Made by a program: the position numbers and the translations under genes. Shown one piece after another: positions 8,362 through 29,509 of a DNA stretch of 32,000 nt. The notes under the pieces are model-generated. The model did no database searches. It was not told the DNA's origin and saw nothing but the letters and a program-made list of their open reading frames with translations. The DNA is from Candidatus Saccharimonadota bacterium. Its GTDB lineage: Bacteria; Pseudomonadota; Gammaproteobacteria; Enterobacterales; Enterobacteriaceae. How positions within the stretch are numbered: position 1 is the stretch's first letter; the number at the start of each line of letters is the position of its first letter. The stretch is taken from contig NZ_CP010048.1 of the NCBI RefSeq assembly GCF_000973505.1, forward strand, positions 420,001-452,000, read 5' to 3'.

Positions 8362-9129
8362 TTATTTTTCTAAAAATTCGTTCACCTGATTTAATTCCTC
8401 AGGAGTATCTACATTAATATAAATTCCATTATTATTAATTACCGAAACATATATTTTTTCACCATACCATAATATTCGAAGTTGCTCTAAAGATTCAATT
8501 TTTTCCAAAGAGGTAATTTTCCAATTAACATAACGATGAATAAAACTCACACGATAAGCATAAACTCCAATATGACGCAAAAAAATATTATCAACATATT
8601 GATTCTCATTAACAAATAAAGAATAATTTTTGCACCAGGGGATCAAAGAACGAGAAAAATATAAAGCATGATTTTTTATATTTACTACTACTTTTACCAC
8701 ATTACTATTATACAATTCTTCTAAAGAAACTATTCGAGCAGCTAACGTCGAAACACTAATATCATTCATAGTTAACAAATTATTTGCTACTTGATTCAAC
8801 ATATCTGATGATATTAATGGTTCATCACACTGAAGATTTATAATTATTTGATTATCCGAAAACTGATACTTCTTAACAACTTCCTCTAATCGTTCTGTAC
8901 CTGATTGATGATCTGTACTCGTTAATATAACCTCTGCAAGAGTTTTTTCTTTTTTAATTATATTCAGTATACCAATATGATCGGTAGCAATAATTACTTG
9001 TTCAGCATGAGACATTAATGCAATTTTCATAACACGTACAATCATCGGTTTCCCTTGAATAGTGGCTAACGGTTTACCAGGAAATCGACTAGAAGAAAAT
9101 CGAGCGGGTATAATAACAACGAAACTCAT
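8362..9129 (-). CDS. kdsB: 3-deoxy-manno-octulosonate cytidylyltransferase (CMP-Kdo synthetase)
   Basis: The N-terminus [21 protein letters not shown] matches E. coli KdsB [54 protein letters not shown].RYVNW and LEQLR.LWYGEKI are also present. The start overlaps the ycaR stop by 4 nt (ATGA). Confidence 0.96.
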   Translation of the reverse strand: [255 protein letters not shown]

Positions 9130-9311
9130 CTTTTTATCTTATCATTAAAAAAAAAATTCCTAGATCTATCTTTTAACAATATTGGAATACCATGTAAAAT
9201 AGGAAAAGATATTTGATCAAATCTACAAATTAATTTCCACTGTGATTTTAAAAAATATAAAGATCTATAACATATCGGACAAACAAGAATTCTCAATAAT
9301 TTATTATCCAT
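9126..9311 (-). CDS. ycaR: Trm112-like small zinc-ribbon protein YcaR (UPF0434)
   Basis: MDNKLLRILVCPIC...LIC..D...FP...GIP.LL resembles E. coli YcaR ([35 protein letters not shown]). It holds the conserved position between lpxK and kdsB. Confidence 0.82.
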   Translation of the reverse strand: MDNKLLRILVCPICYRSLYFLKSQWKLICRFDQISFPILHGIPILLKDRSRNFFFNDKIKR

Positions 9312-13990: not shown

Positions 13991-14377
13991 AATCGATTAT
14001 CTTTAAATTTTAAAATTATTATCCACATACCACGTTCCATGTTATACACTAGGATAACTAAAATAGACACTCACCATCCAAATATGAGCTATTAAATATA
14101 ATTATAGTATATAATCCTACTACTTTATCATCATTCACCTATTCCTAACACACTAAATGAATAGTGACACAAAATCATCGAATAATCAACAAATATGAAA
14201 TGCCGTAAAACATAAACTTATTTAACTTATTTTAAACAATACACACTTAAGATAATAACATTCGTAAAATTATTAACAATTATAAAACAAAAGTTAAAAA
14301 CTATAAACAATTCCATCTTTAGTATATCAACACTATTGCATCAACTGCACAAATATAAAATAAATTATATATAATTT

Positions 14378-14502
14378 CTGCTAATCAGGGTGGAGCTATC
14401 CAGAATAACAATAATTACTCATGCCCTTAATTTTTACCACGGGTCGATCTCAACTGGCATTAAAAGTTTTCTTTGCACTCGATCTGACCTATATGCACAG
14501 CG
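14378..14502 (-). pseudogene. cmk: Cytidylate kinase (cmk) remnant with in-frame stops
   Basis: The minus-strand reading is RCAYRSDRVQRKLLMPVEIDPW*KLRA*VIIVILDSSTLIS. The end, VILDSSTLIS, resembles the E. coli Cmk C-terminal motif ALVLDSTTLSI, preceded by an RD..R...PL-like stretch. In-frame TAA (14434-14436) and TGA (14419-14421) are present. The site is exactly where cmk sits in E. coli (between aroA and rpsA), and it is a locally GC-richer patch in an otherwise ORF-free 950-bp spacer. Confidence 0.5.
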
Positions 14503-14941
14503 AATTTTAAATAATTTACTAAAACATAATTTAAAAAATCAAATAAAAAAACACCTGTAATTCAAAAATTGCACAATAATTTATTTAGTCAAACAACACA
14601 TTTCTCTGGAATAAAAATAACGTTTAAAATCGATAATTTCGATACAAATCAAATGATCGCTTTTTTATCATTAAAATAAAACATCACTCCTTAATAACAT
14701 TAAAGTATAAAACGATTTCATTAAATATTCCACACAACAAGAATTAATATATTATAGAATATAACTTTCAAAATTCTAAATTAAAAAAAACGATAATTAA
14801 CCTTATTAAATATTCTCATTATTAATTAATATACCAACTACGTTATAACAAGTCCTTATCTTTACATGATTTACTTATTATAATATTATAACTCAAATTA
14901 AAAACCACCAACTGTTAACACATGTAACACATTTTAATAAT

Positions 14942-24507: not shown

Positions 24508-24914
24508 CATAACACAACACACTAAAAATTATAATAAAAAATAATTATTACTCTTTACTCACATATATAAAACACCTTACACATTATAAAATTTCAGATT
24601 TGAACTGCAAATTTAACTATACAATAATAATAACATATAATTAATTTAGGACCAACATCCTTCGCATACTACTTATGTATGTATACTAAAACAATAAACA
24701 ATATGTAAGTTACAACAAACATATAACCAAAACAAAATGACACCCAAAAAAAATTAATTTTGTTAATTGTCAACCACATTCTATCTATATTTCATGACAT
24801 ACTTTTTGTAACTTTTATGAACCATAAACATCCGCTCAACACTTTATTTGATCAAATTTTAAAACTGACTAACTCTCAAAAAATCTAAAATCAATAATCA
24901 TATTAACATTTAAT

Positions 24915-24936
24915 TTATCCAATGCTGATTGGATAA
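24915..24936. repeat. Perfect 9-bp inverted repeat with a 4-nt loop (ttatccaat gctg attggataa)
   Basis: Read directly in the ORF-free spacer downstream of infA. No flanking T-run exists on either strand, so it is not a canonical intrinsic terminator. Confidence 0.7.
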
Positions 24937-25400
24937 CACATGTATTAAAACATCAATCATCACATCATTGAATTATACTACTTGTTCAACAAAAATAACC
25001 AATCGTATCTTCAAAAATAGATATCGATAGTTTATCTGAATTATATATTCTAACCTCTAACTATTATAAAACTACGAACCTTTATCATATAATTACAAAA
25101 CATAGTGCACCTTGTAAAATATACCATCTTTCCAAAATAATCACTCCTCATAAAACTATTTAAAGATCCTTAATGATACTGAAAAATTACATATTTCTCA
25201 AAAAACATAAGCACTAAAAAATTCATATAACAACAACAAACACTAAACATTTACTTATTACCATCTAATATACCAAATATACCACCACATTCCTTAAAAA
25301 AACTAAATCAATATTTATCCCTAATTACAAATAAACAAAAACCTAAAAAATATTTCAAAGTATCAATACCATCACTAAAAATATGAGCTAAATAAACACA

Positions 25401-25517
25401 TTAAAAAAATAACTCATAAGAAAAAAAATCACGAGCTTTAGTCACAGTAATCATTTTAAACTCAGCATTATTCATTAATTTTAGCAATATTCTTACAATA
25501 ATTACTTTCGTATAAAT
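25401..25517 (-). pseudogene. clpS: Possible clpS remnant (ClpA adaptor) with an in-frame stop
   Basis: The minus-strand reading IYTKVIIVRILLKLMNNAEFKMITVTKARDFFSYELFF*CVYLAHIFSDG aligns, with a few gaps, to the E. coli ClpS core [43 protein letters not shown] (Y.KVI.V, EF, V, K, FFSY[DE], LA.H). The location fits E. coli synteny, where clpA-clpS follows infA on the opposite strand. Confidence 0.4.
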
Positions 25518-25963
25518 ACACTAACTAATATATGACATTTAACGAATCTGACATAACTCAAAAAATACAAAAAATAAAAAAACATACAATTTTTATCAAA
25601 AAATATTTAAACAAAATTTTCAACTTATAGATAAAAATAACAACATAACTTTAAAAAATATCAACCCTCACATTATGTAAAAATTAAAATAATTGATACA
25701 AAAACAATAATTACAAAGAATGATTCTTCAAATTTTCTATAAAAAAATACATTATCTATCTATGATACTATACTATGATATGAACTTATAAAATAAAACA
25801 TATAAGAAAAATTCCAAAATATCATTTTTTATGCTATCTTTACATTACAATATTCTCCAAATATCTAAATAGTTAATGATTCATAAACATACATAAAAAA
25901 ATATAATATACATATTAATAAAACCATCCTTTAGTCAGTATAATTATATTAGGATTATTTATA

Positions 25964-27181: not shown

Positions 27182-27556
27182 ATGAAGAAGCATAATACTA
27201 TATTTGAACAAATCATTCAAAAAAAAACTGCCACACAACTACTATATCAAGACAATCTAGTTAGTGCATTTTATGACATTCATCCACAAGCACCAATACA
27301 TGTCTTAATTGTGCCAAACATACCAATCCCTACAGTGAATGACATAACACCTTATCATGAAAAAACTATAGGAAGATTATTCACAGTTGCAGCTAAAATT
27401 GCTGTAAAATTAAAAATAAACGAATCGGGTTATCGATTGATAGTAAACTGTAATAATGATGCAGGACAAGAAATTTACCATTTACATATGCACCTTCTAG
27501 GAGGTAAAACACTTGGACCATTAATTTCTAACAGTACTATAACAAACTTAATGTAA
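27182..27556 (+). CDS. hinT: HIT-family purine nucleoside phosphoramidase HinT
   Basis: IF..II......Q.LYQD.LV.AF.DI.PQAP.H.LI.PN..IPTVND....HE...GR...VAAKIA......GYRLI.N.N...GQE.YH.HMHLLGG..LGP includes the HIT motif HxHxHLL. It is collinear with E. coli HinT. Confidence 0.92.
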   Translation: MKKHNTIFEQIIQKKTATQLLYQDNLVSAFYDIHPQAPIHVLIVPNIPIPTVNDITPYHEKTIGRLFTVAAKIAVKLKINESGYRLIVNCNNDAGQEIYHLHMHLLGGKTLGPLISNSTITNLM

Positions 27557-27698
27557 AAAATATGCTATATTTATAAATCCAATACACATAATCAAATGAC
27601 ATAAAAACTATCTGTGCTATACGATTAATAATCATACAACTAATACTGATGGTAATTGATTTTACTAAAATAAATCGTACGTTATACACAACTAATTA

Positions 27699-28282
27699 AT
27701 GAAAAAAAAAATATTTTTTTAATTATATTATCTTTCATATATAATCAGATAGGTTTCAGTGAAAAAATTCTACAAACAGAAACATCAATATTTAATAATC
27801 AGATAAATTTTCAAACAAAGGCAGTTAACACAATACCTACTCCACCAAAAATCCACATCATTATAGATTGGCGAAAACACTTTCTCTTACACATACAGGA
27901 AATAATTACATTTATTACAAAAACTCAACATAAAAACAAGATCATTGCATTATTCATCAACAAAATTGAAAATTACTCTGATTATCCTCTAAATATTCAA
28001 CAAACTACAAATAATTTGAAAAATTTACTACACGAATTAAATAATAATAACAATTTTATAATCATTAATTCATATATTTCATGTGAAATATATGAAAATA
28101 TAAAATTATTAAACAAAAACCTAACACCCCGCAGTACAAGTATTAAATTAGCAAGACATATGAATGCTGAGTATATACTATATAGTACTGCATACAATGA
28201 CACAAAAAACATAAATATAAAATTAGAATTAATATCAGCAAAAAATGGCGAAATAATGTGGTCAAAAATTACTAATACCTAA
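27699..28282 (+). CDS. lpoB: LpoB-like (PBP1b activator) gene, frame-interrupted at the A10 tract. It is either rescued by slippage or an early-stage pseudogene.
   Basis: The frame is open from 27674 to 28282, but its first canonical start is TTG 28016. Upstream of that TTG the same frame reads ...IHIIIDWRKHFLLHIQEIITFITKTQHKNKIIALFINKIENYSDYPLNIQQTTNNLKNLLHEL.., collinear with E. coli LpoB HIRHYDWNGAMQPMVSKML....GSVLLVDSVNNRTNG.LN...ATE.LRNAL. The C-terminus PRSTSIKLARHMNAEYILYSTAY......IKLELISAKNGEIIWS-type region matches GTRSKAIGIARNVGAHYVLYSSA....LQMQLMLVQTGEIIWS. It sits after hinT as in E. coli. Confidence 0.6.
27702..27711 (+). repeat. A10 homopolymer separating the lpoB ATG from its conserved reading frame
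   Basis: ATG 27699-27701 is followed by ten A residues (27702-27711). As written, it reads MKKKIFF* with a TAA at 27720-27722. The long conserved frame is offset by one nucleotide. Confidence 0.9.
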
Positions 28283-28300: not shown

Positions 28301-29509
28301 ATGTATCAACCTTTTATAATATGCATTGGATTGCGTTATATTTTTAAGAAAAAATTTTATCAATTGGAACAATTCACTGCTTACACTTCTATACTTGCTA
28401 TTACACTTGGTGTAACAGCATTGATAGTTACATTATCAATTATGAACGGAGTTGAACAAAAATTAGAGCAAAAAATACTTAACATCGTACCTCATGTATT
28501 ATTAACCTCACAAACACAAAACATTAACCCTGAAAACAATAAAAAATATTTTTTAAAAAACCTACGTGGTATAACACAAGCAAATACCATAGTAAATTTT
28601 GACGGAATATTACAAAGCTCTAACAATATCTCTTTTGGAAAAATAATTGGCATTAATCCTACAGATTATGAACCATTGTCTCGTTTTATGATTTATGGAT
28701 CTACAAAACAATTAATACCTAACAAATACTATGTAATTATCAGCGCAACATTAGCCCAACATTTAAAAGTACAAATAGGAGATAATATTCGCATAATATT
28801 ACCTAATATAACAAAAATTACCCCTATAGGACGTATTCCTACACAAAGACTATTCCAAATAATAGGAATTTATATCACTAACACTAATGTTGACGATTAC
28901 CAATTACTAATTAATCAAGAAGATGGAGCACATTTACTGCATCTTCCAACTACACATATCACAAACTGGAGATTATGGTTAAAAGAACCATTAAAAATAA
29001 ACTCTTTTAATAAACAAAAATTACCTAAAAATGTTATTTTCAAAACAGACTGGAGAGAGTATCAAGGTAATACTTTTAAAGCAATTCAAATGGAAAAAAA
29101 CATGATGGGGCTCCTATTAAGTTCAATTATACTAATATCAGGTATCAATATACTCACTTACTCTTCTTTATTAATTACAGAAAAAAAACAAGAAATTGCT
29201 ATTTTAAAAACATATGGGTTAAATACAAAAAAAATTATATTATTATTTAGCATACAAGGAACTTGTATTGGTGGAATGGGTACAATATTTGGTATTTTAT
29301 GTGGATACCTTATAACAAAAAACATAAATTGGATAACAGCTATGTGCAACTTATTAAATAATGAAGAAATATTACCTGTTCAAATTAAAACATCTCAAAT
29401 CACCGTAATTACCATTATAACAATATTAATATCTTGCTTATCCACATTATATTCAGCAAAAACTGCAACAAACATTAATGTAATCGAGACACTACAACAA
29501 AATGAATAA
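28301..29509 (+). CDS. lolC: Lipoprotein-release ABC transporter permease LolC
   Basis: The N-terminus [13 protein letters not shown] matches E. coli [36 protein letters not shown]...[16 protein letters not shown] and LSTLYS...A....  are collinear. Confidence 0.93.

Follow-up and report, generated by a model that had tools for sequence, protein, structure and literature searches.

A start codon one nucleotide out of frame with lpoB at a poly(A) tract in an ant endosymbiont: a candidate for correction by transcriptional slippage

Introduction

How is a protein to be made from a gene whose start codon is offset by one nucleotide from the remainder of its coding sequence? This question is raised by the lpoB gene of B. 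turneri, the Blochmannia that lives in the ant Polyrhachis turneri. The gene lies in a 32,000-nucleotide stretch of genome that we analyzed as a whole (contig NZ_CP010048.1, positions 420,001 to 452,000 of the forward strand; hereafter the window, whose first letter is position 1). A previous reading of the window, made from its letters without database searches (the sequence-only reading), had pointed to an offset between the lpoB start codon and the gene body across a run of ten adenines (A10), and had suggested that slippage by RNA polymerase rescues the gene. We tentatively favor a reading in which lpoB is still a working gene, its full-length product, a non-lipidated activator of penicillin-binding protein 1B (PBP1B), arising from slippage-corrected transcripts.

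The gene order of the window (trxB, infA, yqeI, hinT, lpoB, lolC, lolD, lolE, purB, with cmk absent) is that of B. turneri, whose genome comprises 749,321 bp (Williams and Wernegreen, 2015; PMC4389277, Tables 1 and S3). In that study, homopolymer frameshifts, seven of them in B. turneri, were annotated as intact genes owing to polymerase slippage. One deposited protein, GenBank AKC59956.1 ("Penicillin-binding protein activator LpoB", 194 amino acids), falls into the same 90%-identity cluster as the window's own gene call and is residue-for-residue identical to the product reconstructed with an eleventh adenine (A11). The idea of a slippage-corrected lpoB is thus already published, and our reconstruction repeats the depositors' own annotation. 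In the literature we found no experimental test of the correction for B. turneri lpoB, no link of Blochmannia to ycfM or lpoB beyond a supplementary gene table, and no list naming the seven frameshifted B. turneri genes. What we contribute here is an independent confirmation of the tract length, a structural case against shorter products, an alternative in which a start codon was lost, and the finding that the lipobox is missing.

Results

The lpoB start codon and body are offset by one nucleotide

The only canonical start upstream of the signal-peptide-like segment of lpoB is an ATG at 27699-27701 on the forward strand, one nucleotide out of frame with the gene body. It is followed by A10 (27702-27711), T, A, and a run of seven thymines (T7, 27714-27720), and its own frame reads ATG AAA AAA AAA ATA TTT TTT TAA, or MKKKIFF*, with the stop at 27720-27722. 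The offset falls within this near-pure homopolymer stretch (A10, TA, T7), nearly all of the 19 nucleotides from ATG to stop being homopolymer. The body frame, which is -1 (+2) relative to the ATG, is preceded directly by a TAA (27671-27673) and is open from 27674 to the TAA at 28280-28282; it holds 202 sense codons before its stop, 190 of which follow the A10 tract, and its first ATG, GTG or TTG is the TTG at 28016. Replacing A10 by A11 yields a 194-residue product (MKKKNIFLIILSF...TNT), of which TTG 28016 encodes residue 107, and A8 yields a 193-residue version. The sequence-only reading had described the short ATG frame, the extent of the offset frame with its late TTG, and the 194-residue A11 product, and all three descriptions hold.

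The open frame upstream of TTG 28016 is not a chance occurrence. Its 114 stop-free codons were equalled in 14 of 200,000 composition-preserving shuffles (analytic P ~6e-5). The codon-usage log-likelihood of this region is +19.2 and indicates coding in the body frame only; on the same scale, 102-codon pieces of window genes score 37.7 +/- 11.5 (minimum 10.1) and intergenic DNA at most -1.0.

The body encodes an LpoB domain that begins upstream of the first canonical in-frame start

The reconstructed product is an LpoB protein, as the sequence-only reading had it. Residues 74-191 match Pfam PF13036 (LpoB) at 41.8 bits against a cut-off of 22.3, phmmer aligns residues 84-189 with the E. coli and Salmonella LpoB structures, and the matches from a HMMER scan of 1.8 billion representatives are all LpoB-like proteins. 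An AlphaFold model with a mean predicted local distance difference test score (pLDDT) of 76 contains a helix at residues 4-17, a disordered linker free of secondary structure at residues 18-57 (pLDDT <50 for residues 19-39), and a globular domain at residues 58-193 (pLDDT 77-95) that opens with a helix at residues 58-76. The best match of this model in the Protein Data Bank, identified by Foldseek, is E. coli LpoB (4Q6Z; E = 3.4e-12; target-normalised template-modeling (TM) score 0.81). A PPK...DW motif occupies residues 47-58; in the family alignment, P50 and W58 of this motif are invariant, and P47 and K51 occur in at least 90% of sequences. The motif and the globular domain start about 50 codons upstream of TTG 28016, and the Pfam and phmmer matches likewise begin before residue 107, bearing out the earlier claim that the region upstream of the TTG is conserved.

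We rejected two shorter candidates as functional proteins. The 88-residue product from TTG 28016 has no export signal and loses helix 1, strand 1 and half of helix 2, while the 122-residue product from an ATT at 27914 also has no export signal and lacks most of helix 1. Because both products are without an export signal and truncate the predicted fold, translation of a working LpoB has to begin near 27700. We also rejected re-initiation at an ATT overlapping the short frame's stop (27722-27724); it would drop the charged part of the signal and some of its hydrophobic part.

Inspection of the N-terminal region revealed no lipobox: the only cysteine is residue 126, and none occurs near the N-terminus in any of the three frames. 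Because this cysteine is missing, B. turneri LpoB cannot be a lipoprotein. Contigs compared with the window include those of B. obliquus (L011, CP010049) and B. nipponica (L013), as well as L014, L015, L019 and L020. LpoB of B. nipponica also lacks the lipobox cysteine, and the homologues on L014 and L015 retain it; judged from these sequences, some members of the clade (B. turneri and B. nipponica) may have an LpoB that has ceased to be a lipoprotein. In E. coli, LpoB mislocalised to the wrong membrane still activates PBP1B (PMC9593243), and by analogy lipid anchoring may be dispensable for the protein. The lipoprotein pathway itself is retained in B. turneri, with lgt, lspA and lnt listed in Table S3 (PMC4389277) and lolA and lolCDE present in the window. 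On L015 (2975-3025), an automatic call of the LpoB homologue (P0045) starts nine codons late, and its true start gives a canonical lipoprotein signal, MKKILLFISMLILFSC.

PBP1B is the sole class A penicillin-binding protein encoded in the genome

The cognate synthase of LpoB, PBP1B (mrcB), is encoded in the same genome and is its only class A penicillin-binding protein (PBP), neither mrcA nor lpoA being listed for any Blochmannia (PMC4389277, Table S3). In E. coli, PBP1B depends on LpoB for its function, and lpoB shows synthetic lethality with both mrcA and lpoA (PMC3060616). Because PBP1B is the only class A PBP of the genome, LpoB is probably still needed by B. turneri. Selection for LpoB is plausible by this reasoning and in view of the four other Blochmannia lineages that retain lpoB with an in-frame ATG, and the gene is most likely still working.

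Transcriptional slippage could join the start codon to the body

The locus has some of the properties associated with slippage correction: a run of at least nine at the break (here A10), a gene that is otherwise intact, and a frame that a single-base insertion restores. Slippage in A/T runs mostly inserts one base, and such insertions become exponentially more frequent as the run lengthens (PMC5574713). In Buchnera and Blochmannia, correction at long poly(A) runs affected 12-50% of transcripts (PMC5009743), and ~30% full-length transcripts have been reported (PMC3017870). The phenomenon on which the sequence-only reading drew, poly(A) slippage in endosymbionts of this type, is thus documented in the genus itself (PMC3017870, PMC5009743).

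In the reading that we favor, RNA polymerase would slip back on the T10 template and add one A in a fraction of transcripts or, less often, an extra U in the U7 run. On such slipped messages, the AUG would open a 194-codon frame encoding a charged and hydrophobic export signal, then the disordered linker and finally the globular domain of LpoB. Unslipped messages would yield just MKKKIFF before the ribosome stops, and output of full-length LpoB would be a fraction of that of an in-frame gene. The protein would reach the periplasm without lipid modification, for want of a lipobox cysteine, and would activate PBP1B there. We propose that the frame has been kept open because PBP1B depends on LpoB.

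Several observations weigh against this reading. A transcriptome-wide study of Buchnera saw no frame-restoring transcription error (PMC5574713). The offset occurs in no other sampled lineage and gives no sign of long-term maintenance, and a sister strain of B. turneri was not found in any collection searched (genome contigs, proteins, metagenomes). The protein is a highly diverged family member: it scores 43.6 bits against the NCBIfam equivalog TIGR02722, far under the cut-off of 110.55, and is the most diverged of seven endosymbiont sequences, retaining 20 of 34 family-conserved positions versus 21-29 in the others. A near-invariant TNG motif is replaced by S-D-Y, and the lipobox cysteine has been lost; together, these sequence features make relaxed constraint on lpoB possible. 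Finally, an in-frame ATT start and ribosomal slipping offer other routes to the same protein.

The sequence-only reading had suggested a comparison of sister strains, which could be carried out in part: in place of a B. turneri sister, four other Blochmannia lineages (B. obliquus, B. nipponica, L019 and L020) were found, all with the order hinT-lpoB-lolC and with an in-frame ATG on lpoB. A scan of genome contigs with LolC found nothing above 41% identity, a Curculioniphilus match having mfd rather than lpoB upstream of lolC. In a protein database, a word-indexed search with the 194-residue product returned only the window's own gene call, the best LolC matches (43% identity) were not from Blochmannia and likewise had mfd upstream in their contigs, and a profile built from the LpoB alignment retrieved no LpoB of a Camponotus Blochmannia. 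A metagenome scan yielded three distant, irrelevant loci, and a contig look-up for the window's own 122-residue call gave no entries.

A recent pseudogene is a less likely alternative

A first alternative, which we regard as unlikely, is that loss of the in-frame start has already silenced lpoB, that the frame is open only for lack of time, and that any slipped product is noise. Homopolymer indels are common first steps of erosion in these genomes (PMC3017870), and a dead gene would account for the divergence just described: the low count of conserved positions, the loss of both the lipobox cysteine and the TNG motif, the score below the equivalog cut-off, and the confinement of the defect to one lineage. 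Divergence does not, however, imply gene death in this clade, because L020, whose frame is intact, is nearly as diverged (21/34), and B. nipponica LpoB is also without the cysteine. Against silencing, moreover, 64 of the 190 body codons lie one substitution from a stop and none has turned into one, and codon usage is gene-like along the full length. The retention of mrcB without mrcA or lpoA also speaks against a dead gene, lpoB being essential on such a background in E. coli, as does the report by the genome's authors of one pseudogene in the entire B. turneri genome (PMC4389277).

The offset may reflect loss of an upstream start rather than an indel in the tract

Alignment with relatives bears on how the offset arose. 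The lpoB start of B. obliquus reads ATG TAT ATT AAG TTA AAT GAA AAT AAA AAA AAA TTT TTG, and the B. turneri body frame reads CGT TAT ACA CAA CTA ATT AAT GAA AAA AAA AAT ATT TTT TTA. Common to both is an AAT GAA in the body frame, with the ATG contained in AATGAA out of frame. Because B. obliquus has an in-frame ATG ahead of this AAT GAA, an indel history for the B. turneri tract is not established; as far as these sequences indicate, B. turneri may have lost an in-frame start rather than shifted frame within the tract, the two histories being equally likely. The B. obliquus gene (L011:6001-6040, CP010049) carries an A9 tract, and its in-frame ATG lies five codons upstream of AATGAA. L020 starts with ATG AAT TGT AAA AAA and L019 with ATG ATA TAT AAA AAA, and both fit the B. 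turneri sequence (ATT) AAT GAA AAA AAA; by eye, ATT 27695 lines up with the L020 start ATG, in alignments that are short and A-rich and in which MAFFT places the starts differently.

This comparison leads to a second alternative, that an ancestral ATG became the ATT at 27695-27697, that the A10 tract has never changed frame (GAA AAA AAA AAT, E K K N), and that AUU initiation supplies LpoB at a low level. The run ATT AAT GAA AAA AAA AAT lies in the body frame, B. obliquus presents AAT GAA AAT AAA AAA AAA in frame behind its upstream ATG, with the ATG of AATGAA likewise out of frame, and the M-x-x-K-K beginnings of L020 and L019 follow the pattern of (I)NEKK. AUU starts are proven for E. coli infC and pcnB, yet AUU initiates there at ~1-2% (0.02-3%) of the AUG level (bioRxiv 10.1101/063800), and a strong AUG four nucleotides downstream would capture most ribosomes. 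The N-terminal alignments, moreover, are ambiguous, with MAFFT setting the B. obliquus ATG opposite other positions, and MKKK... is an equally typical LpoB N-terminus (MKKYLL... in free-living relatives). Taken together, these points make an AUU start improbable as the source of LpoB.

A further case of an offset start was noted on a Blochmannia-like contig of 910 bp (L014:269-349; Logan, SRR31149412), in which the signal peptide of lpoB likewise begins at an ATG that does not share the frame of the body; lengthening a T9 run (303-311) by one T yields MKLKLFCKIYNIFFLFIFGC followed by VHINN..., with a lipobox. One could imagine, as a long shot, that A10 never mutated, that the ancestral ATG was lost (now ATT 27695), and that the out-of-frame AUG in AAUGAA, which existed beforehand and persists in B. 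obliquus, took over together with slippage on A10 and U7. Breaks at homopolymers near the start would then recur in Blochmannia-like lpoB (compare the T9 of L014) and would crudely hold the only class A PBP's activator at a low dose.

Ribosomal frameshifting lacks its usual stimulators

A third alternative places the correction in translation, by a -1 shift on A AAA AAA, by sliding on the A run, or by a -1 slip of peptidyl-tRNA-Phe on UUU UUU with UAA in the A site. Relative to the ATG, the body lies in the -1 frame, the classical direction for a slippery heptamer, and such a heptamer, A AAA AAA, lies at 27704-27710 in the ATG frame, within an ATG-to-stop interval that is almost wholly homopolymer. 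Ribosomes slide on poly(A) in E. coli (PMC4363877), and endosymbiont tolerance of compensatory frameshifting has been proposed in a review (PMC5009743). However, sliding is robust at A11 and weak at A9 and A10 (PMC4363877), no stimulatory structure lies downstream (27712-27800 folds at -5.7 kcal/mol, z = 0.15), no Shine-Dalgarno-like element lies upstream, and the configuration is not conserved in relatives. The missing Shine-Dalgarno sequence upstream of ATG 27699 is itself uninformative, because most window genes have none. We accordingly rate ribosomal correction as quite improbable.

The A10 count is supported by an independent re-assembly

The tract length was compared between consensus sequences. 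A Logan re-assembly of SRR1660458 (L021) is 100% identical to the window over 27557-28020 (464 bp), A10 included; these reads appear to be the original B. turneri set, and are taken as such because the run number adjoins SRR1660457, the source of a B. obliquus contig (L012). The published consensus was built from Illumina reads at 1223x coverage and checked against them. More than 30 A8-A9 tracts and one T10 tract, in ycaR, lie within intact window genes, all in frame, no gene of the window other than lpoB being broken, and the assembly is therefore not riddled with homopolymer errors. A miscount, with a true A11 (or A8) and an intact gene, is unlikely in the extreme: although long homopolymers are the most error-prone sequencing sites and the window has only two tracts of 10 nucleotides, the coverage and read-checking of the consensus, the agreement of the independent re-assembly, the in-frame tracts elsewhere, and the inspection of frameshifted genes by hand by the genome authors all speak against it.

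The window's other 10-nucleotide homopolymer is the sense-strand T10 of ycaR (9147-9156; gene at 9126-9311, minus strand). This gene is intact at 61 codons (RNFFFNDKIKR*), its T10 lies near the stop, and the stop overlaps the kdsB start. On the forward strand of the window (1-32000), 35 runs of at least A8 stand against 4 of at least T8, an asymmetry that persists across the minus-strand gene block (7.6-22.6 kb).

Features of the locus and its surroundings

The coordinates of the lpoB features and of the adjoining genes are collected in Table 1. Downstream of lpoB, lolC is probably transcribed together with lpoB and lolDE. A scan for promoters and terminators around lpoB found no more sites than in shuffled sequence, and Rfam and tRNA scans of the window came back empty.

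Table 1. Positions of lpoB features and flanking genes in the B. turneri window
Feature	Position	Strand	Remarks
hinT	27182..27556	+	Pfam HIT domain, E = 3.8e-26; adjoins lpoB in all Blochmannia loci examined
Whole lpoB body frame	27674..28282	+	202 sense codons + TAA 28280-82
In-frame ATT, 4 nt upstream of ATG	27695..27697	+	possible non-canonical start or mutated ancestral ATG; would give (M)NEKKNIFLIILSF...
Out-of-frame canonical start ATG	27699..27701	+	
A10 tract	27702..27711	+	one more A or two fewer in mRNA would join ATG to body; slippery A AAA AAA in ATG frame
Hydrophobic core IFLIILSFIY of signal-peptide-like N-terminus	27713..27742	+	no cysteine after it, hence no lipobox; translation, AlphaFold helix 4-17, alignments
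T7 tract running into stop	27714..27720	+	extra T, or -1 slip of tRNA-Phe with UAA in A site, would restore frame and give MKKKIFFLIILSF...; sequence read directly, mechanism proposed
TAA closing the 7-codon ATG frame	27720..27722	+	
PTPPKIHIIIDW, P-x-P-P-K-(I/L)...(D/N)-W motif at globular-domain entry	27836..27871	+	well ahead of the candidate starts at 27914 and 28016
Globular LpoB domain, residues 58-194	27869..28279	+	AlphaFold, Foldseek, Pfam PF13036
ATT start of second public gene call (122 aa, MTKTQHK...)	27914..27916	+	cuts most of the domain's first helix
TTG, first canonical in-frame start (88-aa product)	28016..28018	+	loses helix 1, strand 1, half of helix 2
lolC	28301..29509	+	18 bp past lpoB stop

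Three further parts of the window are worth recording. An open reading frame (ORF) at 5664-7604 (646 residues) has weak matches to inverse-autotransporter invasins of the YchO/SinH/Inv family (E ~1e-21), a type of gene that one would not expect in an obligate intracellular mutualist, and contains nine A8-A9 tracts, all in frame. The interval 13991-14941 holds no ORF and no RNA gene and corresponds to the cmk site of other Blochmannia, cmk being absent from B. turneri (PMC4389277, Table S3); 24508-25963, between infA and yqeI, is similarly devoid of ORFs and RNA genes, and B. obliquus carries oprC in this place. The two intervals are probably eroded remnants.

Discussion

Every claim of the sequence-only reading that could be checked in silico stands, and its interpretation stands in part. 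It had overlooked the missing lipobox cysteine and other routes to the same product, namely initiation at the in-frame ATT (27695), slippage of +1 within T7, and slipping of the ribosome by -1 on the A run or, with tRNA-Phe, on the U run beside the stop, and the indel that it assumed in the tract is not established as the origin of the offset. Of the three candidate routes, we rank transcriptional slippage ahead of ribosomal -1 frameshifting and AUU initiation; the routes are not mutually exclusive. If LpoB is made, then cell-wall synthesis in this endosymbiont hinges on RNA polymerase or the ribosome making an error at codons 2-4 of one gene, and slippage-corrected expression, if true, would provide a clean natural case of phenotypic correction propping up a decaying genome.

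As a protein, the B. turneri product is related to E. coli LpoB (YcfM), an outer-membrane lipoprotein that activates PBP1B, by its fold (TM 0.81 to 4Q6Z), by an N-terminal export signal followed by a disordered linker, by the PPK...DW motif, by the adjoining hinT and by the presence of mrcB in the genome; unlike that protein, it has no lipobox cysteine, carries SDY for TNG, and falls under the NCBIfam equivalog cut-off. As a decoding problem, the locus recalls the -1 frameshifting on A AAA AAG of dnaX and insertion (IS) elements and the sliding of ribosomes on poly(A), sharing an A-rich slippery heptamer in the zero frame and a target frame at -1; in contrast to those systems, it has no stimulatory structure or internal Shine-Dalgarno sequence, its A10 is below the length of robust sliding, and the arrangement is not conserved. 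With E. coli infC and pcnB it has in common an in-frame ATT just upstream of the coding body, but here an AUG competes 4 nucleotides downstream, and the AUU is a putative start.

The closest parallel is with genes of Blochmannia and Buchnera that are frameshifted at homopolymers and regarded as slippage-corrected (Tamas et al., 2008; Wernegreen et al., 2010; Williams and Wernegreen, 2010, 2015), corrected frameshifts of this kind being a class described in 2008. In B. turneri lpoB, unlike in those genes, the tract occupies codons 2-4 with only the ATG upstream of the break, and because nothing else precedes the break, a tract indel is indistinguishable from loss of an upstream in-frame start; the break, moreover, is found in no other sampled lineage. 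With those genes, B. turneri lpoB shares a long poly(A) run at a single one-nucleotide break, a gene that is otherwise intact, and a corrected translation already deposited.

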